DNA of 64,000 nt from an uncultured virus (IMG/VR IMGVR_UViG_3300046314_000298) (Duplodnaviria > Heunggongvirae > Uroviricota > Caudoviricetes). Position 1 is the stretch's first letter. The number at the start of each line of letters is the position of its first letter. The notes below the pieces were generated by a model. The model did not search any database. It saw nothing but the letters and a program-made list of their open reading frames with translations, and was not told the DNA's origin. The stretch lies in the IMG/VR virus record IMGVR_UViG_3300046314_000298. One strand, 5' to 3'. A program made the translations under genes and the position numbers. Below are positions 33,437 to 49,338 of the stretch, one piece after another.

Positions 33437-33918
33437 TAGCAATACTTTCCCACTATGTTCTTAAACAGATTAGACACAACTCTATATCTATCCAAAAACA
33501 CAGCAGGCAAGCAGCGCTACTCACTTCTATTTAACAGGAAAGGTCATAGCTGACCTAAAATTAAATTTTACACGTCCTGATCGCACAGCACTTACCATAG
33601 CACCTGGTCTACATTACTGCAACGGCATGAGATTTATACCCCAATCTTTAAACCATACAGCCGTATGATGATCTAAAAATTGTCTGGACGTTCACTTACC
33701 TAAAGATAAGTCAGAGCTATTCCACCATTTGCTATAGTGGGATGCGGATCTACATCGGAACTATCAAATCTAACTCATTGAAATGAGGTTTATTCGACTA
33801 ACGATAAGTTCGTACCGTGTGTAAGATCAGTGAAAAGAGTCTTTGTATTTTGTCGATGTATAAAGTCTTACGGTTTATTCACGCATAGACCTTACCTTAT
33901 CGTGATAGATTATTGCTA
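33437..33918 (-). ncRNA. Candidate large structured ncRNA (~480 nt)
   Basis: ORF-free; terminal 8-bp stem (33437-33444/33911-33918); nested helices; terminator directly downstream. Confidence 0.6.
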
Positions 33919-33934
33919 TCTACTAGGACTTTGT

Positions 33935-34546
33935 TCACTGTGTCATTCTCATGTCTGTTAAAATCAGTTTTCTGACTGTGGTTTCCAAGCCAGGGAAAAC
34001 TGTCAAAACATTAGACATCAAGTTATTCCTTACCTTATTCCTAAGATTGAAGTCGTTATCTGCATTGGTAGGATCTGTCAGATACTTTAACCTATAGAAG
34101 TTAGCATACTCTATAATAGTCTTCTTAGAAGTAGTTAACAAAGGTCTCTGCACATTACCATTTTGATAAGCCATCACTCTACTTCTACCTTGACAGCTGG
34201 TCATCAGGTACCATTCAGTAGCATCAGACAGATGATGACCTGTAAGTACAGGCTTATCCATAGATTGAAATATGGTGTTTCTTTTTCTAGACCAAAAGGA
34301 TTCTAGAGATGTGGAGTTATCAAACTCAGACAACTTGAAGGTTTTATAAGCTAAACCAAGCTGATTAGCTGTCTCTTTACAGAAAGCCAGTTCAGTCTTA
34401 CTAAAGTCTGTGTTATGATCCACAGTAAGTAAAGTTACATTAACTCTCTTCCTTAACAGAAGGTGTAAAAGTACGACCGAATCTATACCGCCTGAAAAAG
34501 CAAGGTAAACATCTTTTTGAAGAGTCTTAAGTACATTGAGTTTCAT
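33935..34546 (-). CDS. tilS: tRNA(Ile)-lysidine synthetase, catalytic domain only
   Basis: AFSGGIDS PP-loop, VDH, TGHHLSD, RPLL, DPTN, RNKVR. Confidence 0.9.
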   Translation of the reverse strand: MKLNVLKTLQKDVYLAFSGGIDSVVLLHLLLRKRVNVTLLTVDHNTDFSKTELAFCKETANQLGLAYKTFKLSEFDNSTSLESFWSRKRNTIFQSMDKPVLTGHHLSDATEWYLMTSCQGRSRVMAYQNGNVQRPLLTTSKKTIIEYANFYRLKYLTDPTNADNDFNLRNKVRNNLMSNVLTVFPGLETTVRKLILTDMRMTQ

Positions 34547-34616
34547 GTGTTGAGAAAAAAAGAAAAGACACAACTGCTCAGAATCTATAAGACTCTAAGC
34601 AGTTGTGCTTTTTTGT

Positions 34617-34928
34617 TGGTAGGCAGGATGAGATTCGAACTCACTATCTTCGGCTTCACATTTGTGTTAGTTTCCTAACTCTGTGGACTATATCACCATC
34701 CTTAACTTAATATTAGGATGTCGGGCGCTTTACTCTGTTATTAAGAAGATTCTACTTCTCAGATAGTCTCTGCACTTTCCTAGGGTATACCCTAAGCTTA
34801 GCTCAGTATTGCCGTCGTCATTATACGTTACGGTTTCACTGAATTCACCCGATTATTCAATACTGATTACTCAGTAAGGTCACCATTGAGATGAGGCCGC
34901 CGCTTATAACCCCTTAAGCTTCCCGCCT
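34617..34928 (-). tRNA. tRNA with CAU anticodon (probably Ile2), exons 34928..34891 and 34656..34617
   Basis: Acceptor AGGCGGG/CCUGCCU, loop CU CAU AA after splicing, GUUCGAAUC T-loop, encoded CCA; adjacent to tilS. Confidence 0.88.
34657..34890 (-). ncRNA. Group I intron (234 nt) in tRNA-CAU at position 36/37
   Basis: P1 UCAUC/GGUGA with U-G; terminal G; core GAAUUCAGUGAAA, GGCAAUACUGAGC, GUGCAGAGACUA, GGUGAUAUAGUCC. Confidence 0.9.
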
Positions 34929-34937
34929 ATTTTACAC

Positions 34938-35241
34938 TGGTCCGCCCGGCAAGAATCGAACTTGCAACTAAAACTTAGCGTCACACTATAGTTTTCACTA
35001 CCAGGTTACCCTGTTTGTGCGCTGGACTTTGTCTTGATCATGACCTACTTATGATAGGTTTTAGATCTTTGCCGTCAAGTCTCTACACGTTCTATCCCTT
35101 TTGAAAAAGATAGCTTCGCTCGGCGTTGGCATCAGCATTACCTGTTAAGCGTTCACCGAATTTGACAAAATTCACTGAATACTTTCGACATCCAGTGCTC
35201 CTAATTGAAGGTTCTTGTTATATCCATTTAACTACGGGCAG
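34938..35241 (-). tRNA. tRNA-Arg(UCU), exons 35241..35208 and 34978..34938
   Basis: Acceptor CUGCCCG/CGGGCGG, anticodon stem AGAAC/GUUUU, loop CU U|CU AA, GUUCGAUUC, CCA. Confidence 0.88.
34979..35207 (-). ncRNA. Group I intron (229 nt) in tRNA-Arg(UCU) at position 34/35
   Basis: P1 CUUC/GGAG; terminal G; core AAAUUCGGUGAA, GCCAACGCCGAGC, GUGUAGAGACU, AAGACAAAGUCC. Confidence 0.9.
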
Positions 35242-35243
35242 AT

Positions 35244-36370
35244 TATCTTTAATAACACTTTATTCAAATGTTATTAAAGATACCCAATATCACTATTGGG
35301 TCTTACCACTTATTACTCACGTAAGACAAAGCTCACATTTTCACATTAGATTCTATATTCTTTTACTCTTATAGACTTTACAGTCAGAGATATTCCTTTA
35401 AGAATCTTACGTGGGTTTAAAGTCTTTCTACCATATCGTGTTATTAGTACCAGGGGCTGACTATGCAATCTTAGGCTTTTCCTGGATTCAGTCATGCTAC
35501 AACTAATAACGCATCAGAGTAATTACTTCTGATATTTGACTTAGGTAATCTCCATTAGACTTATACCTTCTGTATTTAATCCGACCAGACTGCCTTTCGC
35601 ATGTATCTGGTTTTACTGTTTCCAGTAGTGAGCTAAACTCACATTTCGGTCAGATTGGTCCCAGAGTAACTCTGGACTTTGGAGATGGGCACCCACTCGT
35701 TAAAGTGTTTTACCGTCTTTCGATAACTTTTACGCTCATTGACATAGCATGTGGTTTAAACATCGCTTGTCTTGATGGACTACAAGTTATTTTTTCGGTG
35801 GCGTCTTGTTTATCTGTCTGCTTAATCGTTGTCGCTATTCCAAGGGCGAGTCCACCCATCCTGGCGAATGAGCTTCAATCTCTCACGACTATCCTATAAA
35901 CTTTTAAGCTTTTCCATTATTTCAGACCTTACAGCTAACGTCTATATCAGGCGATTAATATAGACATATGCGTATCTGTTGTCATGGCGACAGATGTTCT
36001 CGATGATTGTTCAAGAACATCGATATTCCTCACATGAGTACATTACTGAAACTCATGCAACCTTTTACAAGGACGATATACTTAGGAACGCTAAGTATAA
36101 TTAACTGTCTTTCACTCTCGTGTGGAGCTATTGAACTTAAAGCCACCAGTATCAAGACTAATCCTGGTTTCAATGATATTATTTATATACCGCGCAAGGC
36201 GGTCGAGGTTTTTCTGGTGGGGATTTGATAGACCCTGTCGTTGCAGCAACACGTTTAGCCCTAGCAGACTGCAATCGTTTAAGGCTGTTGTCTATCTCAT
36301 CCAGTTTGAACAACGACACAAGGTCGCACGCTCTCCAGAAATAACCCCATGAGAAATCATTCCACATGGC
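35244..36370 (-). ncRNA. Candidate very large structured ncRNA or ncRNA cluster (~1.1 kb)
   Basis: No credible ORF; dense inverted repeats; abuts the tRNA-Arg 5' end; strand inferred from neighbours. Confidence 0.55.
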
Positions 36371-36380
36371 GATCACTTTC

Positions 36381-36686
36381 TTAAGTTTGTTTCAGCTCTT
36401 CTATCATCAGTTCAAGCATACGCTTTTTAACTTCAGGATCTATGCTCTTGGGAACATAAACAAGTCCGCGTATGGCAAACTCTTTCATGTAAGACAACGA
36501 CATTTTTGTCGCGTTGTCAAATCTGGTTTCACATGCTGTCAACCTAGAACCAGATTTTAAACTCTCTATGTAGTTTACAAAGTCATCTGAACTAACCATA
36601 CCTCTACAGATATCAATAAAGATATTATAAGGATGGGTATTGAGGTTGATTTCCATATGTTCCTTAGTGCATGCACCCTTGCACAT
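36381..36686 (-). CDS. Hypothetical protein
   Basis: ORF with AAGGA RBS before the internal MEINL start. Confidence 0.55.
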   Translation of the reverse strand: MCKGACTKEHMEINLNTHPYNIFIDICRGMVSSDDFVNYIESLKSGSRLTACETRFDNATKMSLSYMKEFAIRGLVYVPKSIDPEVKKRMLELMIEELKQT

Positions 36687-36959
36687 TATACAAGAGGTAA
36701 ATAAAATTTGACACTATTGTCAGATAGAGTTTATATAGCTATAGTTGTTTAGAAAAGGGAAAAATAAAACCACCAGGTGTTACCCTGGTGGTTTTATCTT
36801 GCGCTTACCCGCTTTTCAACTCGGAAGACCAAAACACCATGCGATCCTAAAGCCAGATCGTAATAATTGCTCGTTTTACCGAGTCCAACCATTTATATAG
36901 GAGACACAGAGCTGGAGCTAATCCCAGTCGCCACTATGTACCTCAGTCTTTCCATAACA

Positions 36960-37553
36960 TTATACTTGATTCTGTTTTTGATATCTGAGTTGATTTTCAT
37001 AGTAATAAACTTTGAACTTACAGTAATATTTCAAATGTTTGAAAACTGAGAACATGAAAGCCAGGAATATACTCATTAAAGATACCAGCAGTAAACTTGT
37101 TGTGATAAATATAAGACCGGTACCGCTAATGGCCTGAGTCATTAATAACACTATAACAACATAAGAAGTTATCTTACTGATTGTGGGTAATCGATATAAG
37201 AAGAACTCATTGTTACTTATAACAAAACAATCTTTTAAAGTTACGCTGGTTCTGTGAGATCTTATATAGTTACCGGTATGGATGTTAACACTATTCTCAT
37301 ATTGCAAACCCAGAAGTACCAAATAGATACTTACACATGTTGCTAGATATGCAATCAGAAAGACAACCGTCTGAACAAAGAAAAAGTCTGTTTTATCTAG
37401 ATCGTAAAGATAAAGATAAAGCTGTTTTGTTCTTTCATCTATGAAACTCAGAAAGGTTTTATCCCGAATGAGGATAGAGTAACTGAATAGATACCAGAAT
37501 ACCAAAGCTATAACTGAATAGCTGACACCGAATAAGTTTCTAAGAAAAAGCAT
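36960..37553 (-). CDS. Hypothetical membrane protein
   Basis: About four hydrophobic segments; overlaps the upstream stop. Confidence 0.6.
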   Translation of the reverse strand: MLFLRNLFGVSYSVIALVFWYLFSYSILIRDKTFLSFIDERTKQLYLYLYDLDKTDFFFVQTVVFLIAYLATCVSIYLVLLGLQYENSVNIHTGNYIRSHRTSVTLKDCFVISNNEFFLYRLPTISKITSYVVIVLLMTQAISGTGLIFITTSLLLVSLMSIFLAFMFSVFKHLKYYCKFKVYYYENQLRYQKQNQV

Positions 37554-38256
37554 GATTGATCCTGAGATTAAGTCTGTTTTTGATAGCGTCAGTGCCGGTA
37601 TAATCTTGAAAGTTTGAGAAACCTTCGTTCAATTGCAGCTTGATGAAGCAAAAAGCCAAAGCTCTGTGGACAAAGCTCACATATTTTTTCCTGCTGAAGG
37701 TTTGTGAAAATCTCACACTCTGCGTCATCTCAGGTGTGAGATGGGTGAGATAAGCATCTTTAGTTTTACCAGCCTCTAGTAGATCCAAATACTTTAGAGA
37801 TTTGTCTATCTCCTCAGCAGTAAACTTAACCACTATGTTTTTATGATCAAGAAACATAAGGCCGATAGGTGCAAAGATAATCATCTCTGAGTAACCTATG
37901 CTACCCCTGTGAGAGTTATAACATCCCAGTAACATGTTATACATATCCATGGATTTGGGTCTGTATAAGATCTTATTAGATATGTCTGTCGTCTCAGCCT
38001 TGGCTAACATGAGCATATACATATTAGATACACTTCTGGTAAGAAGCACCTCTAGACTATCTTCTTTTTGATATGTCAGTTTGGAGAACATATCTTTAAC
38101 GTCTTTGACTAACCAGTTGTTAAAGTCCTTTTTGTCTGTAGAGACAGGGTTAAACATACTAGAGATGAGGTTTTCAGAATAATCAAGCAGGCCTTCCAAC
38201 ATCTTACCTGGTATGGGATAGTCTAAAAGTTGCGTTTCTTCAAAGTCTAATTTCAT
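37540..38256 (-). CDS. Hypothetical protein
   Basis: 238 aa, translationally coupled. Confidence 0.65.
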   Translation of the reverse strand: MKLDFEETQLLDYPIPGKMLEGLLDYSENLISSMFNPVSTDKKDFNNWLVKDVKDMFSKLTYQKEDSLEVLLTRSVSNMYMLMLAKAETTDISNKILYRPKSMDMYNMLLGCYNSHRGSIGYSEMIIFAPIGLMFLDHKNIVVKFTAEEIDKSLKYLDLLEAGKTKDAYLTHLTPEMTQSVRFSQTFSRKKYVSFVHRALAFCFIKLQLNEGFSNFQDYTGTDAIKNRLNLRINHAFS

Positions 38257-38459
38257 TTTGTTACCTTAGATAGTTGATTGAGTTTGATTCGGTAATAATT
38301 TAAAGATACTGACCTGGCTCTTAGCTGAGTCAATCTTTTTTCCTGTTCAGGTGTATATTCTTTACCAACCTTTGAATCATGTACTTTATAAAAGAGTTTG
38401 TTGATCTTTTCTAAGAGTCGAGTGGATTGATCCCATTTATGGACATTTGTCATGTTCAC
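38253..38459 (-). CDS. Hypothetical protein
   Basis: 68 aa with 4-nt overlaps on both sides. Confidence 0.55.
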   Translation of the reverse strand: MNMTNVHKWDQSTRLLEKINKLFYKVHDSKVGKEYTPEQEKRLTQLRARSVSLNYYRIKLNQLSKVTK

Positions 38460-39208
38460 TTTATCTTTCTGATATGTTTACAACCTAGACAGTGATTAGG
38501 TACTATTTTGTCTTTAAAGCTTAACAAAGCAGCTTCTCTAGAAAACCCCTGTGGTTCTTTTATATAGCAACAAGGTAATTCAACGCCATCTATTGTATAA
38601 AACGGATTGTTTTTATTTCCGTTTAGAAAATCACAAGTTATGGCTTTGGCTTTGTCATCCGGGACTTTAAATATAATTTTCTTATTTTCGGGATATACAG
38701 ATACATAATCAGACTTAACTGACAGTTGATTAATATTGTAAAAAATATTATTTTCTTTTAACCAGAGTAAAGTGCTTTTTAAGTCTTGACCCACATTGGT
38801 TATTTGCACATCCACAACAGTCTGCTTATGTGATTTTAACAAAAGTATATTTTGCATCACCTTTTTAACATTATGCCTGCCTATTGACTTACATGTTTCT
38901 TCGTCAATGCTGTCTAATGAAATAGATATTCTTTTAAAATATTTAATAATTTTCTCTATATCAACAACAGATCCGTTAATTATGGAATAAGGTATATGAC
39001 CTCTAGAATAAACATAATCAACTCCTTCCCACCAGTATTTCCATAAGGTTGGTTCGCCTTCACCCTGTAGTTTAATAACAGACGTGTCTTTAAGCTTATC
39101 TATAATTGTGGTAAAGGTATCCCAGGACATATCTTTTTGCTCCATGGTCCTGCCTGTGCAATACCAGCAATTATAATTACAACGCGTGGTTACTTCTATT
39201 TGTATCAT
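38456..39208 (-). CDS. Radical SAM protein with SPASM/twitch-like C-terminus
   Basis: CNYNCWYC, GEGEPTL, ISISLDS, LPCC...CLGC. Confidence 0.88.
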   Translation of the reverse strand: MIQIEVTTRCNYNCWYCTGRTMEQKDMSWDTFTTIIDKLKDTSVIKLQGEGEPTLWKYWWEGVDYVYSRGHIPYSIINGSVVDIEKIIKYFKRISISLDSIDEETCKSIGRHNVKKVMQNILLLKSHKQTVVDVQITNVGQDLKSTLLWLKENNIFYNINQLSVKSDYVSVYPENKKIIFKVPDDKAKAITCDFLNGNKNNPFYTIDGVELPCCYIKEPQGFSREAALLSFKDKIVPNHCLGCKHIRKIK

Positions 39209-39288
39209 TATTCACATCACATGTTTTCAATTTATCGTAAATAAAAATAACGCAAAAAAGATAAGCAGGGATTTACCCCTGCTTATCT

Positions 39289-39519
39289 TTAAACCTTCTG
39301 CACTTTACCGCATGTGGAACAGGTGATTTCACCGTTCAGCATGTAGAACTTGCACGGGTCTTGAAATGCTATCTTGTCGTAGTCGCAAGCAAGGTTCTTG
39401 CTTTCTACGATGGTGGTGATAGCTGTGCGCTCTTCTTCAGACCCAGCCACTACTTTGTAGTCTGTGTATTTAGGGATACACAGAGCACGTTTTACATTTT
39501 GGAAGAATGATTTAAACAT
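39289..39519 (-). CDS. Small Cys-rich hypothetical protein
   Basis: MFKSFFQ start with AAGGCGG RBS; CSTCG. Confidence 0.55.
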   Translation of the reverse strand: MFKSFFQNVKRALCIPKYTDYKVVAGSEEERTAITTIVESKNLACDYDKIAFQDPCKFYMLNGEITCSTCGKVQKV

Positions 39520-39862
39520 TTTCCGCCTTTGGAATCTGGTGGTCTGTGGTAAAAGCCATTTTTCCACCCATGTGCCTGAGCTTTACGTCACAGATGTTTT
39601 CGATCTGCTCGTCCATCATCTTATCGATTTTGGATTTGATGAAGTCTTGCATTTCAGGTTTTTCCAGCTCTTTACTGATGATTTCTTCGATCATTGAGCG
39701 ACCAATGCCTTTATCTTTGACGAGTTTGCCATTTATATAGGCATCTCTTTCATAGAAAAAAGCGTAGAAGGCGCTGTTGATAGTTTGATCTATCTGAAGC
39801 TTGAGTCTTTTTTCGATGGCTGGTTTATCGATCAACTGATCGATGTTGAATTTGATTTCCAT
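39512..39862 (-). CDS. Hypothetical protein
   Basis: 116 aa with conserved leader motif. Confidence 0.65.
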   Translation of the reverse strand: MEIKFNIDQLIDKPAIEKRLKLQIDQTINSAFYAFFYERDAYINGKLVKDKGIGRSMIEEIISKELEKPEMQDFIKSKIDKMMDEQIENICDVKLRHMGGKMAFTTDHQIPKAENV

Positions 39863-39895
39863 GGTACATTCTTTCTTGAGACAGGATTGATTAAA

Positions 39896-40099
39896 TCAAG
39901 CCAAAGCAGATTCTTCCAACTCCAGCATGTTGACAGGCACATGTGCCTTATCTCTGGACTGTTCATATTGAATATGAACACGAGCGGATCCGACAGGCGC
40001 ATCTTCCACTACACGGATACGGAACTTCATTTTCAACCGTGATGTGAAAATACCCTTAGTACCTTTTTTGATCAAGGTCTTGCTGACTGGTTCAGTCAT
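39896..40099 (-). CDS. Hypothetical protein
   Basis: 67 aa, coupled to the upstream gene. Confidence 0.55.
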   Translation of the reverse strand: MTEPVSKTLIKKGTKGIFTSRLKMKFRIRVVEDAPVGSARVHIQYEQSRDKAHVPVNMLELEESALA

Positions 40100-40376
40100 T
40101 TCTTTCTTTCTTTACAGGTTCTTCTACAAACAGTATATAGATGACTGCGTAGATAACTAATAACAAATTAAACAAAATGATCGTGGACACACCTGTCCAG
40201 AAGATCACAGCAGCCAAAGGCTGGTCTGGTGTATACCAGTGTGTGAACACAACACCAAAAGTCAGAATAAACACCACAAGTGCAATCAGCTTAATGTTAA
40301 CTGCTTTCTGATAGTGTTTATGGAAGACGTTATTTGGGTTATCTCTATAGCTTGAGCTTTCAAGATACTTGTTCAT
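40092..40376 (-). CDS. Hypothetical two-TM membrane protein
   Basis: Two hydrophobic helices. Confidence 0.6.
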   Translation of the reverse strand: MNKYLESSSYRDNPNNVFHKHYQKAVNIKLIALVVFILTFGVVFTHWYTPDQPLAAVIFWTGVSTIILFNLLLVIYAVIYILFVEEPVKKERND

Positions 40377-40879
40377 GATCTTATATAAGTTTTCATGTGT
40401 TTGTCAGCTATGTGTATAGTATCTAGTTGAATCCGTCTGGTGACATCATCTTCCATCACACACATAGCCTCGTGCATGTCTTTAACCTGATTGACTTCAG
40501 ACTCAGTGAATCTGTACCAATCAGGATTAGTTTCATGTTCAGAAGCTTTTACCACCAGCATGTTAAAGACAGCTTCTAGCTCATCTACAGTTTCTTGCAC
40601 ATAAACCACTTTAGCTATCTCTACCGCATGCTTGGTTCTAAAGGCTGCGTTATACCAATCAGTAGGTGTGCCTGTATTGGTTTCAAGAGCTTTGATGGTT
40701 AATTCAAAAACTCTTCTGATCTTATCCTTCAGTTCTTTAGGAACAGCAAAAACCACTGGGGTGTGGGTTTTGTATTTCTTTTTGACTTGAGGGCGTTGTT
40801 TGAGTTTAAGTTCTATTACCACGGCTAGGGATGAAGTTATCCAGATAGGTGTTGATGTAATAGGCTGCCTCAGCTGCAT
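40373..40879 (-). CDS. Hypothetical protein (start uncertain)
   Basis: 168 aa ORF overlapping the upstream ORF by 74 nt. Confidence 0.55.
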   Translation of the reverse strand: MQLRQPITSTPIWITSSLAVVIELKLKQRPQVKKKYKTHTPVVFAVPKELKDKIRRVFELTIKALETNTGTPTDWYNAAFRTKHAVEIAKVVYVQETVDELEAVFNMLVVKASEHETNPDWYRFTESEVNQVKDMHEAMCVMEDDVTRRIQLDTIHIADKHMKTYIRS

Positions 40880-41039
40880 CTTTACATCTCACGATGGAAG
40901 TAGACAGCCTGTACTTGAGAAATATCGTACCTGACTCAAGTATGGAAATACCTATAGGGCAGTTAACACCGTCCAGATTTGTTTCTTTGACAAACTTAGA
41001 AAGTCTGTTAACAGCTTTATCCAGTAAACCATCAGTCAT
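40806..41039 (-). CDS. Hypothetical protein
   Basis: 77 aa, ATGA coupling. Confidence 0.55.
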   Translation of the reverse strand: MTDGLLDKAVNRLSKFVKETNLDGVNCPIGISILESGTIFLKYRLSTSIVRCKDAAEAAYYINTYLDNFIPSRGNRT

Positions 41040-41557
41040 TTGACTTCCTTGAAACTAGCGATGAAATTCTTCATGCTCCCAGCAGGTGTGGTGTTTCCAG
41101 TCTGGACTTTAAACCCAACACGAAACTCTGACTCAAGACCTTTGCCAGAATCTACACGTTCAAGACAAAACATGTATAGGCCATGTTCATCAGCCACAGC
41201 GTCCAGAGCCATGGCTTGATCATGACAACTAACTGTCATGAAATATTCTTGAGGTGCTTGCCTTGCCAAAGCCAGACATAGGTTGAGTTGATTCTCACGC
41301 ATCTTGTTGACGTGTTCGTGAAATTCTTTCTTCAGGGTGCGCATCTCAGCTTTCAAAGCTTTGTTTTCTTCTTTGATAGCGTTGAGTTGTTTGTTCTCTT
41401 TCAGAACATCCTGAAGATCCAGGATCAGCTTAGCAATATTAGAAAAATCAAATTTTGAGGTTTGATCTTCCATAGCTACTGTAACGGCATTTTGAACTGC
41501 TGATTCATTAACCTGTTTCTTGGTAGCTGACTTCACAACTTTACTTTCATTCAACAT
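41036..41557 (-). CDS. Hypothetical coiled-coil protein
   Basis: 173 aa with conserved leader motif. Confidence 0.65.
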   Translation of the reverse strand: MLNESKVVKSATKKQVNESAVQNAVTVAMEDQTSKFDFSNIAKLILDLQDVLKENKQLNAIKEENKALKAEMRTLKKEFHEHVNKMRENQLNLCLALARQAPQEYFMTVSCHDQAMALDAVADEHGLYMFCLERVDSGKGLESEFRVGFKVQTGNTTPAGSMKNFIASFKEVK

Positions 41558-41600
41558 GATACATTCTTTCTTTAATGAGACAGGATTGTCAAGTAAAGTC
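41555..41600 (-). promoter_or_regulatory. Recurrent promoter/leader motif ACTTTACTTGACAATCCTGTCTCATTAAAGAAAGAATGTATCATG
   Basis: Related copies at about 31645-31690, 39860-39890, 43504-43550 and 50995-51040, each ending at a start codon. Confidence 0.65.
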
Positions 41601-41697
41601 TATATAACCGTAATTATTTACGAGGGTTTAATCAAATAGTAAACATCGTGAATAAAAAAATAAATATAGAACAGCCCTTGTGAGGCTGCTCTATATC

Positions 41698-41931
41698 TTA
41701 TCTGTCTAATTTCAAATCGATCAGCTTAGTCAGCTTATGGATAGTGTTATATCTGTCCATCTCATCATCGGTTATAAACACATCGAAATGTTGTTCTAAC
41801 TGCATGATGATCTCTACTCTATCCAGACTGGTTAATCCTACGTCACTATTTAGAACGGTATCTATTGTGACGTGTTGATTGGTAAACTCAGTCACGATCT
41901 GTTTTATTTCAGATTCTGTTGTTGTCCTCAT
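41698..41931 (-). CDS. Acyl carrier protein-like
   Basis: 77 aa, acidic; GLTSLDRVEIIMQLEQHFDVFITDDE matches the phosphopantetheine-site helix. Confidence 0.8.
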   Translation of the reverse strand: MRTTTESEIKQIVTEFTNQHVTIDTVLNSDVGLTSLDRVEIIMQLEQHFDVFITDDEMDRYNTIHKLTKLIDLKLDR

Positions 41932-41967
41932 GATACATCCTACGTTGATACATAGGATATTCAATCA

Positions 41968-42483
41968 TCACTTCTTACCACCGGTGATAAGCCTTGGGGA
42001 CCAACCCTTCTTAATCACAGTCTCTTCTGAAACTTTAAATTCTTCAGGTTCTTTTTCTTCAATGGCATGTTCATTAACAGTGGTGTGTTCGGTAAGCTTA
42101 TCCTTACCTGACTTCTCAGCTATTACTATCTTTGTAAGCTGGATGAAGAATGATGTAAAAGGATAGGGGATAACCGCATCTACATCTACATCAATAATAG
42201 CATCTATTTCGTCCAGAGAAATCATGATGTTTTCAGGCTTGCCGTTGAACCTGGCCTGAAAACTCAGATAATGTTCATAAACACCAAAATTGTGCACAGA
42301 CTCAGGTGATAGATTAAGAGTGATAACCCCTTCTTGACTTTTATGCTGCTCCAGGAAACCTGCATGGGTCTTAGGGCGATACCAGATATGTACACGATGA
42401 CCTTGCTCAGTCAACAAAGTGTAGCTGGATGCAAAGGCATCTGTTACAAGTTTTTTAACGTCAAGTTGAATTTGAACATTCAT
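41968..42483 (-). CDS. sspB: ClpXP adaptor SspB-like protein
   Basis: GVITLNLSPESVHNF, LSFQARFNG, acidic linker, C-terminal PRLITGGKK resembling the ClpX-binding tail. Confidence 0.75.
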   Translation of the reverse strand: MNVQIQLDVKKLVTDAFASSYTLLTEQGHRVHIWYRPKTHAGFLEQHKSQEGVITLNLSPESVHNFGVYEHYLSFQARFNGKPENIMISLDEIDAIIDVDVDAVIPYPFTSFFIQLTKIVIAEKSGKDKLTEHTTVNEHAIEEKEPEEFKVSEETVIKKGWSPRLITGGKK

Positions 42484-42676
42484 GATTTTGTTCCTTAGTT
42501 GGAAGTTGGTGATTGTGAGGGTTGAAGATGATGCCGTCGGTACGTTTAAGCCAGGCTACAGCAACATAGTTGACTTGAGGATAACCCCTTTGTGTGATGC
42601 CTGTAATAGTACCAGGTCCTACAGGACTATCTTCTATGGTATCGCCTATCTCAAGATATTCAGGGTTCATAGTCAC
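42461..42676 (-). CDS. Hypothetical protein
   Basis: 71 aa, coupled. Confidence 0.55.
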   Translation of the reverse strand: MTMNPEYLEIGDTIEDSPVGPGTITGITQRGYPQVNYVAVAWLKRTDGIIFNPHNHQLPTKEQNHECSNST

Positions 42677-43506
42677 ACTACTTTCATGACACGTTGAAAA
42701 ATGTAAAACTTTCTATCTGGAAACTTAATGCCCAAACGTTGAGCCTCAGTAAAAGCTTTCTTATATGTCAGATGAGTTGAGGGTTTTTCAGAAAATTGAT
42801 AACCGTTAAAATCTTCTGTTTTTTCTTTCAGCTTACTGGATATGACAAATATTCGTTTTCTTTTAAGACTGTTGGTATGGTCAAGAACCATATCTACTGT
42901 TTTACAGAAATTTAAATAGTGCTCATTAAGCTTGGTATTTTTGTAGTGTGTTCCAGTTTCGTTAAGCTGGATACCGTTTTCATCTAATAGATGCTGAAGG
43001 TTATTTTCAGCGTAGATGCTAAACATCTGTTGTTTAGTACCGGGCATGATACTTTCCTTTTTTGACGAAGTTTGATTTTTACATTCTTTTTCTGGCAGAT
43101 GTACACCATTTATGTACCAGTATTTTTCACCGCTGCGATTTTCGATAGCAGGTCCATCAATACGGTGAAGCATGCCGTGTCGATACCATAATTTATTACC
43201 ATCTATGCGCTCAACAGCTGATCCGTCTTCCCGATGACGCTCACCGTTCAGCCACCATTCACTATGACCATTCCGGCGATCGATAGCAGGACCATCTATT
43301 CGATGACGCTTCCCGTTCAGCCACCATTCTCTATCGCCGTTAGCGTACTCAACAGCAGGATCATCTAGACGATGTAGTATGTTGTCCAGATACCAAGCTT
43401 TATACCCATCCAAACGCTCAACGGTTGGACCATCTTCACGATGAAGCTTATCGTCTTTATACCAAACTACACTTCCATTTTCTTTTATGACTTTTCCATT
43501 TAACAT
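42673..43506 (-). CDS. Repeat protein (WxxxGxxHRxDGPAxE x5) with a separately initiated C-terminal domain
   Basis: Five 24-aa repeats; internal in-frame RBS and ATG at 43047. Confidence 0.7.
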   Translation of the reverse strand: MLNGKVIKENGSVVWYKDDKLHREDGPTVERLDGYKAWYLDNILHRLDDPAVEYANGDREWWLNGKRHRIDGPAIDRRNGHSEWWLNGERHREDGSAVERIDGNKLWYRHGMLHRIDGPAIENRSGEKYWYINGVHLPEKECKNQTSSKKESIMPGTKQQMFSIYAENNLQHLLDENGIQLNETGTHYKNTKLNEHYLNFCKTVDMVLDHTNSLKRKRIFVISSKLKEKTEDFNGYQFSEKPSTHLTYKKAFTEAQRLGIKFPDRKFYIFQRVMKVV

Positions 43507-43625
43507 GATACATTCTTTCTTTAATGGGACAGAATTGTCAGATAAAGTTTAAATGATTATAAATAACTAGGCAGCCTATTTGCTCTGTTCATAAAAAAAA
43601 CAGGACCCGAAGATCCTGTTTTATA

Positions 43626-44615
43626 TTAAGGTAAGAAATCACACTTCATCAACCTCAGAAACTTTTCAGTATCTGAGATAGGAAATGAGAACCCTGAAGC
43701 ATTTTTATGCCCACCGCCGCCGTTGTGTTTAGCTATAGCTGATACATCCACATCTCCAGCAGCGTTACTACGAAGAGAAACTATCACCAGATCTCTACCA
43801 GGGCTGACGATGAAGAAAGCACAAAACGCATACTCATCTTTAACAAGATCAGCCACGTTTGATACATACTTCATATCACAGTTCATAAGGGCTGCTTTAC
43901 CCAACTTGGTTTCCACAGGAGTAATAAGTCCTTTCAGACGCTCACATTCTGCTTCGTAGAAGTCAAGCTCCAATGCTGCTTTGGTCCAGACGGCTTTAAA
44001 TTCACTATCTGACATTTCAAAGATCTTGTCCCAAGCTTCAAATGTCATCTCAGCATTCAAAACTTTGTTCCAGATCTTTGTACCGTCCAATTTGAAAAGC
44101 CACAGATCACGATCTTCTACAGCCAACGCAGCATGGCGCAGTCTAGCAGGAACATCGATATCTTCAGAATCAATAGTTTCCAAAGCCAGACCAGCGCCTG
44201 AACGATTCTGGATAAGTTTAGTGAAGAACTTAACATCCTTCTCACAACAAATCAGGTCAGGTCTCTGCTCAAGACAAAGATGATTGACTGTCTTTAGTTT
44301 CTCTACGTCAGAAGCACCGTAGATATCAATCGCTGTCTTGTGGTGATCAAGAAACGCCAAACACTTGAGGTTTGGGGATTCGTTGACAATCTTAGCCAGA
44401 TCATCTTTGCTGTAAGAATAGTCGATAATCCAGAACTCTTCTGCGTCTGTAGACAAAGCCTCGTCACCATACTGCACTGGTGTGTACAGTACATCTAGAC
44501 CATCCAACTCAGCTTCCTGGCTTTTAAACCAATGTCTGAGTAGATAAGCAGACATAAAACCATCGGTACAGTTCTTGTGGTACCGAACTTCAACTTTCAT
44601 TTTTTCAGACATCAT
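43626..44615 (-). CDS. DHH/DHHA1 phosphoesterase (NrnB-like)
   Basis: YHKNCTDG, IDYS, LDHHKTA, DRDLW, SLRS, GGGGHKNASGF. Confidence 0.88.
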   Translation of the reverse strand: MMSEKMKVEVRYHKNCTDGFMSAYLLRHWFKSQEAELDGLDVLYTPVQYGDEALSTDAEEFWIIDYSYSKDDLAKIVNESPNLKCLAFLDHHKTAIDIYGASDVEKLKTVNHLCLEQRPDLICCEKDVKFFTKLIQNRSGAGLALETIDSEDIDVPARLRHAALAVEDRDLWLFKLDGTKIWNKVLNAEMTFEAWDKIFEMSDSEFKAVWTKAALELDFYEAECERLKGLITPVETKLGKAALMNCDMKYVSNVADLVKDEYAFCAFFIVSPGRDLVIVSLRSNAAGDVDVSAIAKHNGGGGHKNASGFSFPISDTEKFLRLMKCDFLP

Positions 44616-44760
44616 GATACTTTCTTAAGTAAAACAAAAACAATTGAAATGACACAACATGCGCAAAAGAACCCGAGACTCAGGTATTGCATAATGGAGA
44701 GTTCCCTACTCCACTTATCCAAATCCTCTTGTTCTTTCTTTGAAAGATTGCGGTAATCGT

Positions 44761-45174
44761 TCATTGGCTGAAGTCCGTTCTTGATTTGATCATGTTCTTT
44801 GCTGTATCATCATCTGCATTATACAGACGGTCGCAAAAGCACTTATCTATTTCATTCACGACTTTTTCCAATTTCACCCACTGATAAAAAGCTTGACCGT
44901 AGCGCAAAGTTTTACTATCGTGTCTGAAATCCTGAATGACAGAATTGCTAAACGTTAGGCGATCTGTATCACAAACAAAATCATCTTTGAGTTCAGAGAA
45001 ACGTTCGTGAGACAAACAGCGGAAATGTACATAGCGATTACCATTTCCGCTATCGTACCAAGCGGTAGTGCGAAGATGAATCAGATTTTCCACATCGTTA
45101 CAAACAGGACACAACACTTCTTCATTCACAGTCGCCATTTGACCTGTGAAAATTTCTCTTACAAATTCTTTCAT
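44761..45174 (-). CDS. Hypothetical protein
   Basis: 137 aa with AAGGAAGTATCATG start. Confidence 0.65.
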   Translation of the reverse strand: MKEFVREIFTGQMATVNEEVLCPVCNDVENLIHLRTTAWYDSGNGNRYVHFRCLSHERFSELKDDFVCDTDRLTFSNSVIQDFRHDSKTLRYGQAFYQWVKLEKVVNEIDKCFCDRLYNADDDTAKNMIKSRTDFSQ

Positions 45175-45189
45175 GATACTTCCTTTTGC

Positions 45190-45543
45190 TTAAACAGATT
45201 TATAACGAAGCAGATCCCAAATCTCTTCATCGGTGAGTATCTCATACTCTACCGGTGTGTTGATCTGAGCTTTGATCTTAGCATTTGATGTCCAGCAATT
45301 CTCTCGCTTGTGTTCATGGACACCAGGTCGTTGAAACTCAACAGCTGATTTGAGTTTCTTTTCATCGTAAATGATGGCTATCACACAGGACTTGCCGTGC
45401 GATATGTGTTTACCCGGACCTTTCTTCGACTTGCCAGAAATTCGATCAGCCCAACAAGCTGCCTCGTTGATATCCCTGGTTACAGTACCTGGCACAAAAC
45501 CAGGTTTCAAGAAAGATCGCAAGGTACCTTTATAGAATACCAT
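45190..45543 (-). CDS. Hypothetical protein (start uncertain)
   Basis: The longer ORF start crosses a terminator, so MVFYKGT is preferred. Confidence 0.5.
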   Translation of the reverse strand: MVFYKGTLRSFLKPGFVPGTVTRDINEAACWADRISGKSKKGPGKHISHGKSCVIAIIYDEKKLKSAVEFQRPGVHEHKRENCWTSNAKIKAQINTPVEYEILTDEEIWDLLRYKSV

Positions 45544-45854
45544 TTCATAATAACCCAATAAGTTATTGGCTTTTGGGTTTGGTTTACTTGATGAAATACC
45601 AAGTCTCAAATAAAGTAGATGTTGCCAAAAAAATTTACATAGCCTATACACCCGAGCCATATAGGCCGGGTGTATAGCTGTGTTTCATTTAACGTTTATA
45701 TAGACCAATAGGAATAAAACCATGACTATTCCTACAGCCAGTACAAATGACTGACCATCAAGAACTATGTCTTTATATTGATCTTCTTCAGTTTCATAAG
45801 CACTCAAGGTACTTATACCAGAAGCTTCATCTTTTTCATTGTTAAAAAACATGA

Positions 45855-46049
45855 TTATATTTCTGTTGATTTAACAATGATAGATAAGCCATCTGGATGA
45901 TAGCTGGAAGTGCTCTTACAAGCCATGTTGATAGATTCTTCTATAGATTCAAACAGAGGATGATTCTGTCTAAATCTAAGCTGTACGTGTTTCTCTTTAC
46001 CTTCGTCATTGACGATAGTTGTATTAAAGACTATTTCGTTACCGATCAT
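45855..46049 (-). CDS. Hypothetical protein
   Basis: 64 aa, ATGA coupling, GAGG RBS. Confidence 0.55.
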   Translation of the reverse strand: MIGNEIVFNTTIVNDEGKEKHVQLRFRQNHPLFESIEESINMACKSTSSYHPDGLSIIVKSTEI

Positions 46050-46270
46050 GATTTATCAAACCTCTTTTTTATCTCTCTAAAAACTACCATCGATAACACC
46101 AGAGCTGAAAATATATTCAGTAAAGGAGCTAAAGACACCACTATCAAAATACCACCTGTGGTAGCACTGAAGTCTACACCTCTCTCATCATAAAAAAGAT
46201 AAGCGCAGATAGCTGTTAGAACAAAACCAAAGATTACAAAAGTCAGATGTGTAGTTATAAGAAATTCCAT
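46046..46270 (-). CDS. Small two-TM membrane protein
   Basis: Start reassigned to MEFLITTH; the upstream extension overlaps structured RNA. Confidence 0.55.
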   Translation of the reverse strand: MEFLITTHLTFVIFGFVLTAICAYLFYDERGVDFSATTGGILIVVSLAPLLNIFSALVLSMVVFREIKKRFDKS

Positions 46271-46403
46271 TTTAATACCGTTGTTGTAGTTACAGTCAAA
46301 TAATTTCGGGTAAAAAAATAAGGGCGGGACAGTTTGTATCTGCTTGTGACAACCGAGTCTGGGTAGACTGATCACTTGCATCAACAAACTGTCCCTAATT
46401 AAG

Positions 46404-46504
46404 AACAAAGCCAACATGAATCGAACATGTTAAGTAAATATAACCTTCTACGCAGAATAGCACTGCTCCAGTTAATTTACTTGCCTCTACCAGACGGCTT
46501 TGTT
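46404..46504 (-). ncRNA. tRNA-like RNA with an extended anticodon-position arm
   Basis: AACAAAGCC/GGCUUUGUU end pairing, CUGGUAGAG D-loop-like segment, AACAUG-UUCGAUU-CAUGUU T-arm; no CCA. Confidence 0.65.
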
Positions 46505-47668
46505 TCTCTATTTATTACAAGATAGAGAAGGATGTGTCAGTCACCGCATCCAAGATATTTATAACACCGACTCGTGTTACCGGTTTGTCCAAACCTGGTG
46601 AAAGGATAAGCTACATCTGTTTAACTCAATCGCCACATACCCAGTAGTTCAGGTAAGGGTTAAGATGATTGTGCTATAATAAGCACAGAGCCTTAATACG
46701 ACAGTGTTTTAATTCATCAACATAACACTGAAGATACCCGAGTTCTCAATAGAGAATCTCGCTGTATTTTTGATGCCTAAGCACTCTAAAGCTATCTCTC
46801 CTAAAATAAGAGATAGCTTATAGGCTGCTCTCTGGGGTGATCAATCCCAAAGTTTACAACTTCCCAAAGATATCATTCATACAGTTCCCGACCAAGGGTA
46901 GTCTATATAAGAGATATCCATAGGGCGTACGATTTGGCGGTTGGTTAGACCACCTTCTACTCCTTAACAAAAAGTTAAAGGCAGGCTATTATCGTGAGCG
47001 CACCTCTTTCTATTACACACTTGTGATGTGTTTCGTCCTTGTGTTTAAAGCCTTAGGACTCATCAGATAGATAAGGCTCAAATGAAGTTTATGTGGCCTC
47101 ATTCTTTTATAAAGGGGTTTTCCCATAGCAGACTAAATGACTTCTGTCTATCTAATCTGCTACAGGCAAACACCTGAGTGCTAACTTGTTATCATATCAC
47201 AAAGGTAGATAACCACAACCTATTACAATAAAGACGTGTGAATCGCCTGCTTGCTTTGGCAAGAACAGCCCTCGAAGCTAGAGCCACATCAGGTCTGAAC
47301 AATCGTCAGAACACATGATCCCAGGGGATTTAAAAAGCATCAAACACAGTTCTGGGAAACTATGTGCTAGATCGACAGTTTATATTTTCCTTGTTTTATC
47401 AACTAAGTGAAAATACCGATCACTTTATACTGCTCCATCGTGCGTGTATTTTGTTATCACGCTAACGTCCCGATAGTACGTTTACCTAAGTTACCAATGG
47501 TCAATACCTGCACCCTAGCCTTACGCCCGCAAGCGATCTATTAACTTAACTCCGTAATCCGCAATGATATACGCACATTAAGAAATGTTTACACACTAGA
47601 TTTACTAAGCAGCGACTTGTTAGTTACCATTGATACGATCAAGTCTACTCCGGTTTACTTAGGTTAAA
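46505..47668 (-). ncRNA. ORF-free structured RNA tract (~1.15 kb) downstream of the tRNA cluster
   Basis: No ORF of 60 aa or more on either strand; many hairpins; contains a hammerhead ribozyme. Confidence 0.6.
47009..47079 (-). ncRNA. Type I hammerhead ribozyme, predicted cleavage between 47014 and 47013
   Basis: UCUAU-CUGAUGA-GUCCU..AGGAC-GAA-ACACAU-CACAA-GUGUGU-A-AUAGA: complete core, three stems, GUA site. Confidence 0.9.
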
Positions 47669-47736
47669 TGGTACCAGGAACGGGACTCGAACCCGTAAGA
47701 CCCTTGCGGAAGTATTAAGTTTTTAAAGTACATGGG

Positions 47737-48045
47737 TGGCCCGCTCCGGAATCGAACCGGAACGCCCCTTACGAAAGCGTCAGATTTTAAGTCTGATCTC
47801 TACCACTGCAGTTTTCACTGCCACTTTAGTGTGTTTGTGGTCTGGACTATCCCTTCAACTACATCCTAAATGTTTAGCTGGGCGATTATAGTCTCTGCAC
47901 GTCTTTCTATATTTCTATAGAAATTTCGCTCAGGATTGGCATCAGCAATTAACTGTTAAGCTTTCCCTGAATTTACGCCATTTTACTACATTATTTCTAA
48001 TGTAGGACACATCAAATATATGTCTACCTATTTCATCAGCGGGCC
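47737..48045 (-). tRNA. tRNA-Leu(UAA), exons 48045..48020 and 47797..47737, no encoded CCA
   Basis: GGCCCGC/GCGGGCC acceptor, UCAGA-CUUAAAA-UCUGA anticodon arm, long variable arm, UCCGG-UUCGAUU-CCGGA T-arm, A73. Confidence 0.88.
47798..48019 (-). ncRNA. Group I intron (222 nt) at tRNA-Leu position ~25/26
   Basis: P1 GACAU|AU..AUGUGUC with U-G; P10 AUCAGA/UUUGAU; terminal G; core AAAUUCAGGGAAA, GCCAAUCCUGAGC, GUGCAGAGACUA, GAAGGGAUAGUCC. Confidence 0.92.
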
Positions 48046-48056
48046 ACCCATGTACT

Positions 48057-48557
48057 CTATTTCTTTTCTAATCTGTAGTATTCTTTCTTTATTTCAGTTC
48101 TTTCGATGATCACGCCGCCATTTTGAACTTTGGCGCCATAAGAACCTGAACATTTTTTACTACAAAAAGGACCTGCTCTATTAGAAACATAATTAGTTAT
48201 CTGATTTTTACTAGGGGTAAATATTTCCTCACACCCAGCACACTTTACAGGATCCACCTTTACTCGTTTAGCGTCTTCACTTGCGTGAACAGGCAGTGTT
48301 TTAACAATAAGGTTATTTAGAGAATTATTGGTGAAATTTCTATCGTGATGGTCAACAGTCTCACCGTCTTTTAACTTTTGTTTTAATTCAATTTCTTTTA
48401 AAGCCTTGGGGTAAGAGATGGTTTTGGTCTTACCTTTAGTCCCCTTAGCAGCTTTTGAATTATTTAAAACAATATGCTGTCGACCATCACTTCTGTGATA
48501 AGGACCTAAGACGGATGTATATTCTGGATATAATCCAAGAAGTATTTGCTTATCCAT
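48057..48557 (-). CDS. Free-standing HNH endonuclease with C-terminal zinc-finger-like domain
   Basis: ETVDHHDRNFTNNSLNNL...H; CAGC...FCSKKC. Confidence 0.85.
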   Translation of the reverse strand: MDKQILLGLYPEYTSVLGPYHRSDGRQHIVLNNSKAAKGTKGKTKTISYPKALKEIELKQKLKDGETVDHHDRNFTNNSLNNLIVKTLPVHASEDAKRVKVDPVKCAGCEEIFTPSKNQITNYVSNRAGPFCSKKCSGSYGAKVQNGGVIIERTEIKKEYYRLEKK

Positions 48558-48652
48558 GTTTTCCCTTTACCGATTTGGGCATCCTGGTAATATCTATATC
48601 TCACGTTGCAGTCAGTTAGAATATTTATCACTAAATGATTCTAGAAAAGGAT

Positions 48653-48727
48653 TGGTGCCGGATGTCTGATTTGAACAGACGACCTATCGCTTACAAGGCG
48701 AGTGCTCTACCCCTGAGCTAATCCGGC
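48653..48727 (-). tRNA. tRNA-Thr(UGU), intronless
   Basis: GCCGGAU/AUCCGGC acceptor, CU UGU AA loop, GUUCAAAUC, CCA. Confidence 0.93.
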
Positions 48728-48789
48728 TTACTCTCCGCATTCTATTACAAACACGAATAAAAAAATACCCTGTTTGACCAGGGGTATTT

Positions 48790-49338
48790 TCAATTGATAC
48801 TATCGCCATTAAAGAAATTAGCTATGTGGTTATAGTGTTCTGTGATCTTGAGATTAAACACAGGTACATTATACAAACATGCCAAATCTATAGCGATCTT
48901 AGTACCGCCAGTTCTTGTACTCGTAGTCCCTCTACCTATATAACCATCTCTGGTATAACAGATAACGAACTTACTAGGATGACTCAAATCATTCCCTAAT
49001 ATCTGAAGTACATTTCTACCATAGAGCTTAAGAAGAGCTGGGGACAATTTATCCATGTAAGGACAAACGTTCTCCAGGATTCTGTAAGCTTCGTTTGGTA
49101 TGTGATATTGATAATCTAAATCGTTGAAGCCTTTCCAGGGTAGATAGATTTCACAATTCAGTTTATTTCTAACACCTTGGTAGAACGCTGAGTCTGCTCC
49201 TTCAGCACCACCTGAACGCAAGATGTATTGCTTCTGCTCTAGAAGAGCAGCTACTTTAGTCATAGCGTCCAGATAGAACTGAGGAGTATCTCTGTTACCT
49301 ATACCTGTGTAGGTACGGTTACTGAGTAGATCAATCAT
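48790..49338 (-). CDS. SLOG/DprA-like nucleotide-binding protein
   Basis: YTGIGNRDTP, LRSGGAEGADSAF, RNVLQILG, GGT. Confidence 0.75.
   Translation of the reverse strand: MIDLLSNRTYTGIGNRDTPQFYLDAMTKVAALLEQKQYILRSGGAEGADSAFYQGVRNKLNCEIYLPWKGFNDLDYQYHIPNEAYRILENVCPYMDKLSPALLKLYGRNVLQILGNDLSHPSKFVICYTRDGYIGRGTTSTRTGGTKIAIDLACLYNVPVFNLKITEHYNHIANFFNGDSIN

Follow-up and report, generated by a model that had tools for sequence, protein, structure and literature searches.

Compact group I introns of two lineages split the tRNA-Arg(UCU), tRNA(CAU) and tRNA-Leu(UAA) genes of a jumbo-phage-like genome fragment

Introduction

Why would a bacteriophage carry tRNA genes that have to be spliced before they can be used, and where do the introns that split them come from? 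The question is raised by a 64,000-nucleotide (nt) stretch of DNA from an uncultured virus (IMG/VR record IMGVR_UViG_3300046314_000298; this whole stretch is hereafter the window), on the minus strand of which a tRNA-Arg(UCU) gene and a tRNA(CAU) gene stand in tandem, each interrupted by a compact group I intron, while a third such intron splits a distant tRNA-Leu(UAA) gene. Our analysis indicates that the tandem is very probably a phage two-tRNA unit with self-splicing group I introns that lack an open reading frame (ORF), and that these introns are near-neutral mobile passengers drawn from two lineages.

Published group I introns of bacterial tRNA genes lie in the anticodon region (Williams 2020, bioRxiv 10.1101/2020.01.27.920355; likewise PMC4090602). 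The systematic survey by Williams (2020), which covered bacterial and archaeal genomes only and eight anticodon-loop positions only, added 17 new classes and listed the T loop of transfer-messenger RNA (tmRNA), with 343 cases, as the only other site. As for phages, a 2014 review (PMC3984707) placed all phage introns described to that date in protein-coding genes, despite the many tRNA genes that phages carry, and the report on Vibrio phage pVa5 (PMC5746245) describes a 'tRNA-Stop interrupted by a ~2.5 kb ORF-containing area', which it does not call a group I intron. Our own literature search, the coverage of which left out most subscription journals, returned no paper that deals with group I introns of phage tRNA genes.

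Two split tRNA genes in tandem

Group I introns were recognized with the Rfam model RF00028, for which the gathering score of 50 bits was taken as the criterion. The original prediction had placed the Arg and CAU genes at 34617-35241, split at 34/35 and 36/37, respectively, and had put the break in tRNA-Leu near 25/26; our exon maps and the RF00028 matches agree with it in every one of these points (Table 1). The CAU intron scores 87.7 bits (match 34664-34917), the Leu intron 59.7 bits (47821-48029) and the Arg intron 49.1 bits (34999-35218; E 3e-11 in a local search), and in all three the U at position -1 is paired to a G of the internal guide and the terminal intron base is G. The accompanying statement, that three of the four intact tRNAs of one genome are split at three different insertion sites, holds within the window, tRNA-Thr being the exception, but the 'genome' is a fragment, estimated by CheckV to be 27% complete.

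The guide sequences fit the exons that they would have to align. Bases 4-10 of the Arg intron (uuaggag) complement the entire ligated anticodon loop CUU-CUAA (the hyphen marks the splice junction), giving a P1 helix of 3 base pairs (bp) with the U.G and a P10 helix of 4 bp, a fit equalled in 517 of 20000 shuffles of the first 35 intron bases. In a 16-intron alignment of its family, which has 43 consensus pairs, 32 of them with compensatory changes, and an intact P7 in 16/16 rows, the Arg intron retains 37 pairs, all six misses falling in a differently registered P2, and its own P7 keeps 5/5 pairs, one of them through a compensatory swap from A-U to U-A. The Leu intron retains 41 of the 43.

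When the introns are removed by script, ARAGORN reads the Arg product as tRNA-Arg(tct) with a normal cloverleaf and the Leu product as tRNA-Leu(taa), while its intron mode gives the wrong anticodon for the Arg gene, Ser(gct), and mislabels the Leu gene as Val(gac) with a false anticodon-loop intron. CCA is encoded in both the Arg and the CAU gene, and both have their T loops and G18G19. A DNA contig from an independent sequencing run covers 33900-36190 with zero differences and no joint; therefore, the Arg-CAU arrangement is no assembly artefact.

We propose that the unit is transcribed in the order tRNA-Arg(UCU), 9-nt spacer, tRNA(CAU), strong terminator. Both of its introns are compact and of the bacterial tRNA type, which the literature assigns to subgroup IC3. 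In either precursor, the 5' side of the anticodon loop would pair with the guide near the intron 5' end to form P1, in which a U.G wobble would mark the splice site; free guanosine would attack after U34 (Arg) or U36 (CAU), the terminal G of the intron would enter the same pocket, and the exons would be ligated. The products would be an AGA-reading tRNA and a tRNA(CAU), the latter probably converted by the neighbouring phage TilS-like enzyme into an AUA-reading tRNA-Ile2. Because the matching codons are heavily used (across 59 ORFs and 16511 codons, the shares are 39% for AGA among Arg codons, 30% for AUA among Ile codons, 19% for UUA among Leu codons and 32% for ACA among Thr codons), both tRNAs are likely needed, in which case the introns must splice. 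We infer from sequence that the Arg, CAU and Leu precursors are all spliced.

Table 1. Coordinates of the split tRNA genes and of other features in the window
Feature	Coordinates	Strand	Basis or remark
tRNA-Arg(UCU) split gene	35241-34938	-	sequence; ARAGORN intron mode gives identical ends
tRNA-Arg(UCU) 5' exon, positions 1-34, last base U34	35241-35208	-	sequence; ARAGORN intron mode: intron after base 34
Arg group I intron, 229 nt, ORF-less, anticodon loop site 34/35	35207-34979	-	RF00028
tRNA-Arg(UCU) 3' exon, C35 through encoded CCA	34978-34938	-	sequence
tRNA(CAU) split gene, probably tRNA-Ile2	34928-34617	-	sequence; 9-nt spacer after tRNA-Arg
tRNA(CAU) 5' exon, last base U36	34928-34891	-	sequence
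CAU group I intron, 234 nt, ORF-less, site 36/37, class Ile2.5Ug	34890-34657	-	RF00028
tRNA(CAU) 3' exon, A37 through encoded CCA	34656-34617	-	sequence
Terminator-like hairpin, 19 pairs, then T run	34608-34568	-	directly 3' of tRNA(CAU)
TilS-like PP-loop enzyme, N-terminal catalytic domain only	33935-34573	-	next gene downstream of tRNA(CAU); likely ATG near 34548
tRNA-Leu(UAA) split gene	48045-47737	-	split after U25
tRNA-Leu(UAA) 5' exon: acceptor 5' strand and whole D arm, last base U25	48045-48020	-	sequence
Leu group I intron, 222 nt, ORF-less, between D-stem U25 and A26	48019-47798	-	RF00028
tRNA-Leu(UAA) 3' exon: A26, complete anticodon arm, long variable arm, T arm, acceptor 3' strand, A73	47797-47737	-	sequence
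Free-standing HNH endonuclease gene	48057-48557	-	phrog_14913 E 8.6e-15; PF13392 E 4.5e-4 (under Pfam cut-off)
tRNA-Thr(UGU)	48653-48727	-	sole uninterrupted tRNA gene within the window
Group I intron	4771-5098	-	RF00028, 81 bits; between HNH gene (5131-5928) and RNA polymerase beta C-terminal part (3777-4667)
Group I introns	17206-17498 and 17577-17887	-	83.7 and 68.7 bits; 78 nt apart; adjoin HNH-domain ORF (17843-19441)

The CAU intron and the Ile2.5Ug class

Ile2.5Ug is the class of group I intron found in bacterial tRNA-Ile(CAU), for example in Azoarcus sp. BH72 and Burkholderiales (Williams 2020), and the class also figures in the tRNAscan-SE 2.0 paper (PMC8450103). A pattern built from exon end, guide and P3 (CTCAT..TGGTGAC..TGAATTCAG) occurs at 57 loci in bacterial genomes, 42 of which were framed by script as tRNA(CAU) genes; among the rest, three look like split tRNA(CAU) genes too and the others are chance matches. 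The bacterial split genes come mostly from Burkholderiales, other Gammaproteobacteria and Cyclobacteriaceae. We aligned 16 of these loci with the window gene and with its counterpart in Klebsiella phage Muenster. Across the 18 sequences, homology extends over the whole length, with shared invariant blocks and 60 consensus pairs, 31 of which show compensatory change; the window row deviates only at the G27.A43 pair, and its junction falls in the same alignment column as those of the 16 bacterial and the one phage homologue.

Like Ile2.5Ug introns, the window intron is inserted after U36, is short and ORF-less, and has the CAU/GUG P1 with a splice-site U.G; the full helix is UCAU/GUGA plus one intron pair (4-5 bp), there is no P10, and the short P1 with its U.G is invariant in 18/18 aligned relatives. 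It differs in having a phage as host, in being only 54-64% identical to the bacterial pre-tRNAs, and in interrupting an unrelated, non-canonical tRNA body (A8) beside a phage TilS-like gene; in the 18-sequence alignment, that body is unlike the bacterial Ile2 genes. Judged by its sequence and site, the CAU intron belongs with the classical Ile2.5Ug introns of bacteria (Azoarcus type). Its identity to the Muenster intron is 65%, against 45-50% to the Arg and Leu introns. An exact scan of IMG/VR for the two-gap Ile2.5-type pattern gave 0 matches, and a blastn search of GenBank phages with 34500-35400 gave intron-core matches only, none of them covering 80% or more.

Muenster is a published jumbo phage isolate. 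Its locus (MT708547, 1466-1773; the same in phiKp_21) is an unannotated tRNA(CAU) that a 231-nt group I intron (RF00028, 104 bits) interrupts at 36/37, and it sits in a 515-bp gap between the annotated tRNA-Ser and tRNA-Asn genes. An unannotated relative is present in Klebsiella Alcyoneusvirus isolates, and related jumbo phages of Klebsiella and Escherichia give matches too.

The product of the gene next to tRNA(CAU) scores 103 bits against TIGR02432 (lysidine_TilS_N; NCBIfam cut-off 93.6) and matches PF01171 with E 4e-28. Its adjacency fits a tRNA-Ile2 identity of tRNA(CAU) and is no proof of it. The TilS-like protein, used as query among viral contigs, retrieved no close relatives. An 83-kb IMG/VR contig (L126/L268) has a TilS-like gene, 33% identical to that of the window, about 1.9 kb from a three-tRNA cluster in which tRNA-Arg(UCU) carries a 34/35 intron, tRNA(CAU) is intronless and tRNA-Leu carries an intron, so that the module is partly conserved.

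Evidence against an active unit, and the case for decay

Several observations weigh against an active, mobile and splicing unit. Logan contigs from three freshwater metatranscriptome runs and one DNA run contain no exon-exon joint for the three tRNAs (33900-48800), and, as the Logan RNA data are assembled contigs with thin exon cover, this absence is uninformative either way. The Arg intron falls 0.9 bit short of the Rfam gathering score and lies on a long branch of the intron tree described below. ARAGORN leaves the spliced CAU tRNA uncalled even when its thresholds are lowered; this tRNA has A8 where U8 is near-universal, a G27.A43 mismatch and a 10-nt D loop, and its cloverleaf, drawn by hand, comes to -22.9 kcal/mol against a minimum free energy of -25.8, that is, 2.9 kcal/mol higher. 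The CAU P1 taken alone is not above chance (equalled in 3072/20000 shuffles), the TilS-like protein has the N-terminal domain alone, and no endonuclease gene adjoins the Arg-CAU pair.

Read at their strongest, such features would make one or both genes decaying relics, with an intron that no longer splices or a tRNA that no longer functions: the CAU tRNA body is non-canonical and rejected by ARAGORN, the Arg intron is the most divergent of its family and below the Rfam cut-off, and broken tRNA halves lie elsewhere in the window. We regard decay as very improbable, given that both introns have all their core helices and guide pairings intact, that the encoded CCA ends, T loops and G18G19 have been preserved, that AGA and AUA are heavily used codons, and that the TilS-like gene would lack a substrate if tRNA(CAU) were lost. 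A working unit with splicing introns is the reading that we prefer.

Two RNA contig features deserve mention in their own right. One 231-nt RNA contig from one run, spanning 34657-34880, stops at the predicted last base of the CAU intron; we do not count it as evidence. Contig joints linking 35003 to 47832 were considered as rearrangements and rejected, since they arise from the P9 region common to the Arg, Leu and other introns of the sample.

An intron in the D stem of tRNA-Leu

The third intron lies outside the anticodon loop altogether. The anticodon arm of the Leu 3' exon is complete (UCAGA CUUAAAA UCUGA), and U25/A26 is the sole choice of U and G pair that leaves one base between the D and anticodon stems. 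Bases 4-14 of the intron complement the ligated GACAU-AUCAGA, providing a P1 of 5 bp and a P10 of 6 bp, which was equalled in 6 of 20000 shuffles.

The Leu-25/26 site recurs in eight distinct contigs, the window included; the arrangement was found in two viral contigs (L264 and L265) and four further distinct metagenome contigs, and one Leu-25/26 viral contig encodes a chimallin 37% identical to that of the window. The yield of the search pattern was mixed, with two real loci among eight viral ones and an intron core in 6/56 metagenome loci, the others being chance matches. The alignment of the eight pre-tRNAs has 84 consensus pairs, with compensatory change at 45; covariation extends to all seven acceptor pairs and to the anticodon stem, and the splice-site U.G and P7 are both present in 8/8. 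Covariation of P1 cannot show in this set because the search pattern fixed the P1 sequence, and P10 varies among the copies in step with the exon. Sequence comparison thus defines Leu-25/26 as a class of insertion site that lies outside the anticodon loop and is retained in at least eight contigs. A precedent is that of the tmRNA T-loop introns, which also lie in a tRNA-like fold outside the anticodon loop, whereas the Leu intron sits in a true tRNA, at the D stem and position 26. The class suggests a ribozyme able to take the D stem's 3' strand as its P1 substrate, and the D arm could therefore form only after splicing. It widens the known range of group I ribozyme sites in tRNA and offers a compact natural ribozyme-tRNA system in which the coupling of splicing and tRNA folding can be studied.

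A free-standing HNH gene ends 11 nt upstream of tRNA-Leu. In collaborative homing, as in cyanophage S-PM2, an ORF-less psbA intron is associated with the neighbouring free-standing homing endonuclease F-CphI. The window resembles that case in its ORF-less tRNA-Leu intron and abutting free-standing HNH gene, which may play a comparable role; it differs in that the target is a tRNA gene and in that the Arg-CAU pair has no such neighbour. No relative of the window HNH gene occurs in the 450-500-nt flanks of two related Leu-25/26 loci.

The same region holds further peculiarities. The acceptor stem of tRNA-Leu can be extended to 13 perfect pairs by the flanks 48039-48051 and 47732-47744 (ATGGGTGGCCCGC / GCGGGCCACCCAT), and the gene ends in ACCCA, not ACCA. 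Two halves of another tRNA of the long-arm type, likewise on the minus strand, flank the HNH gene and the intron-bearing tRNA-Leu: a 5' half at 48563-48588 (acceptor ACCAGGA and D arm) and a matching 3' half at about 47669-47712 (variable arm, T arm, acceptor TCCTGGT and ACCA). Their acceptor strands are perfectly complementary, and there is no anticodon arm. By their sequence and position, the halves look like a scar left where a mobile cassette inserted into a resident tRNA gene.

A family of introns that changes tRNA and site

Between the Arg and Leu introns, identity is 59%; the two are 64-74% identical to introns of IMG/VR contigs and 52-80% identical to members of the Leu/fMet-type family. 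The sequence blocks quoted in the original prediction are present in both introns. Both also have family blocks such as AGTCCAGACCACAAAC and the GAAA-capped P9, which occur likewise in cyanobacterial tRNA-fMet introns and in 50 tRNA-Leu 34/35 introns of viral contigs. An 18-base family block (ATAGTCCAGACCACAAAC) occurs at 119 viral loci among the matches listed (about 470 are estimated for the collection), and at 84 of these 119 loci a split tRNA gene spans the block. The largest site class among the listed viral loci is tRNA-Leu(UAA) after U34, with 50 cases; the others are tRNA(CAU) after U33, tRNA-Arg(UCU) after U33 or U34, tRNA-Glu(UUC) after U34, tRNA-Asn(GUU) after U35 and one tRNA(UCA). 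Such per-class counts are approximate because about a fifth of the calls of the noisy automatic classifier (sites 20, 24, 31, 32 and 38-49) are artefacts of choosing the longest guide pairing. Cyanobacterial tRNA-fMet introns bear the family block with one change, and RF00028 had no match in two marine Synechococcus genomes. A further pattern, TGAATTCAGNGAAACCNTAAC, matches 54 viral loci, none of which (0/54) the scanner placed in a split tRNA.

Phage tRNA genes thus often carry group I introns. Standard tRNA finders miss intron-split phage tRNA genes, and phage tRNA repertoires are therefore under-counted.

A quick maximum-likelihood tree was built from 80 introns, with 71 of 87 spliced-tRNA candidates retained on the basis of one unambiguous whitelisted label and the rest dropped. 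The eight Leu-25/26 introns form one cluster inside a set (support 99 in the Shimodaira-Hasegawa-like approximate likelihood ratio test, SH-aLRT) that also contains CAU-33/34, Asn-35/36 and Glu-34/35 introns, and the window Arg intron stands on its long branch among Leu-34/35 introns. Labels of tRNA and site change 12 times on the tree, the minimum possible being 7 and the mean after shuffling 29.1; therefore, the family has moved between tRNAs and sites repeatedly. The phylogeny that the original prediction had asked for accordingly confirms retargeting across the family, but the Arg and Leu introns are not nearest relatives. The idea of a single lineage retargeted to new sites survives in that these two introns are of the same family in the broad sense; it fails for the CAU intron, which is of a separate lineage, and the tree holds no retargeting within the genome. 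We considered, and rejected on the same ground, that the Arg and Leu introns are copies made inside the phage genome: their positions in different subclades indicate that the phage acquired them separately.

How do these introns relate to named classes? Leu.3Ug and fMet.2Ug are the introns of cyanobacterial and plastid tRNA-Leu(UAA) and of cyanobacterial tRNA-fMet, subgroup IC3 (Williams 2020). The window Arg and Leu introns share blocks and helices with them, with covariation, but Leu.3Ug is inserted after U34 of tRNA-Leu(UAA) and fMet.2Ug after U33, whereas the window sites are U34 of tRNA-Arg(UCU) and U25 of tRNA-Leu(UAA), with guides rewritten to match. Since the sites by which the classes are defined differ, we class the two introns, from their sequences, as relatives and not members of Leu.3Ug and fMet.2Ug. 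Arg.5Ug is the class of the tRNA-Arg(CCU) intron (Williams 2020). Like the window Arg intron, it is a group I intron that interrupts the anticodon loop of a tRNA for arginine, and the two differ in anticodon and position (UCU after base 34 in the window, CCU after base 36 in Arg.5Ug). The organism in which Reinhold-Hurek and Shub described a tRNA-Arg(CCU) intron in 1992 was reportedly Agrobacterium.

Two variants were seen in passing. In two IMG/VR contigs (L007 and L010), a 443-nt intron in tRNA-Leu(UAA) has a peripheral insert with three consecutive T-arm-like hairpins (GTTCGAWTC loops). A 144-kb IMG/VR contig (L125) has a long-variable-arm tRNA whose UCA anticodon would read UGA and which becomes complete only once a 346-nt intron after U34 is removed; the guide region of this intron resembles that of the window Arg intron.

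Passengers or protection

If the introns are passengers, they have probably spread as co-infecting phages recombined, now and then moving to a new site, and free-standing homing endonucleases such as the HNH enzyme encoded next to tRNA-Leu would help them to do so. HNH genes adjoin three of the four intron loci of the window, namely the tRNA-Leu intron and the protein-gene introns. One of the intron-bearing tRNA-Leu genes has an intronless allele in cyanophage isolates, S-TIM5 among them.

The original prediction had instead suggested that the introns are kept for protection, either by breaking the targets of homing endonucleases or integrases in the DNA or, in the RNA, by delaying the moment at which host anticodon nucleases can reach the anticodon loop. 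There are grounds for such a view, as the window is rich in HNH endonuclease genes, one of which abuts an intron-bearing tRNA-Leu, as three of its four tRNA genes are intron-bearing, and as an occupied site by definition resists a nuclease that cuts the empty one; moreover, one review (PMC4090602) treats both the disruption of viral attachment sites by introns of archaeal tRNA genes and the threat that anticodon nucleases pose to tRNAs. Yet hiding at the RNA level ends at splicing, because the anticodon loop of the spliced tRNA is normal; related phage tRNAs commonly exist as intronless alleles, both in cyanophage isolates and in L126, where an intronless tRNA(CAU) lies beside an intron-bearing tRNA-Arg; the family changes tRNA and site often, like a selfish element; and the Arg-CAU pair lacks an adjoining nuclease. 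The proposed shielding or hiding role has thus found no support, and we consider it quite unlikely. That an intron-bearing allele resists cutting is normal homing logic and is no separate function.

A broader version of this idea is that group I introns occur widely, though unannotated, in phage tRNA genes, beyond the anticodon loop, and that they may persist as shields or weapons against homing endonucleases with which co-infecting phages cut tRNA genes. It is speculative and, in our judgement, improbable, less so than protection of the two window genes as such; if true, tRNA introns would be weapons and shields in phage-phage competition and not mere passengers. Near-neutral passage is the account that we favour for the window introns.

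The phage and other features of the window

The window lies within an IMG/VR contig of 72.7 kb, and the sequencing runs that contain the phage are freshwater metagenomes. Because it carries genes for a chimallin homologue (PF25677, E 1.2e-34), a phiKZ-type divergent family B DNA polymerase (PF20286, E 6e-211) and an RNA polymerase beta subunit (phrog_3295, E 1.5e-78), the window is, judged from its genes alone, a fragment of a chimallin-encoding jumbo phage of the nucleus-forming type (Chimalliviridae-like). Polymerase identity to the nearest isolates is 41% at most.

Rfam places six group I introns on the minus strand of the window, three at the tRNA loci and three in or beside protein genes. 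The latter three, which are 52-65% identical to one another, make up a third lineage. A 93-nt 'tRNA-Met' called by ARAGORN at 58930-59022 is a false call inside a phage tail repeat (PTR) ORF (57949-59493).

Two ORF-free stretches of the window have high RNA depth. The one at 35300-36150, which lies just upstream of tRNA-Arg, exceeds all other RNA stretches in depth by a wide margin, with contig depths of 129, 77 and 46 in three metatranscriptome runs against about 3-12 over the tRNA genes. It had no Rfam match at E up to 5 and no blastn match in GenBank phages; its folding z-scores are -4.97 on the minus and -2.49 on the plus strand, with many GNRA-capped hairpins, and we regard it as a candidate large structured non-coding RNA beside the tRNA genes, the minus strand being the likely one. 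The other, 47043-47466 (within 46418-47720), which has no Rfam family, no GenBank phage match and no similarity to 35300-36150, reaches RNA contig depths of 106 and 29.

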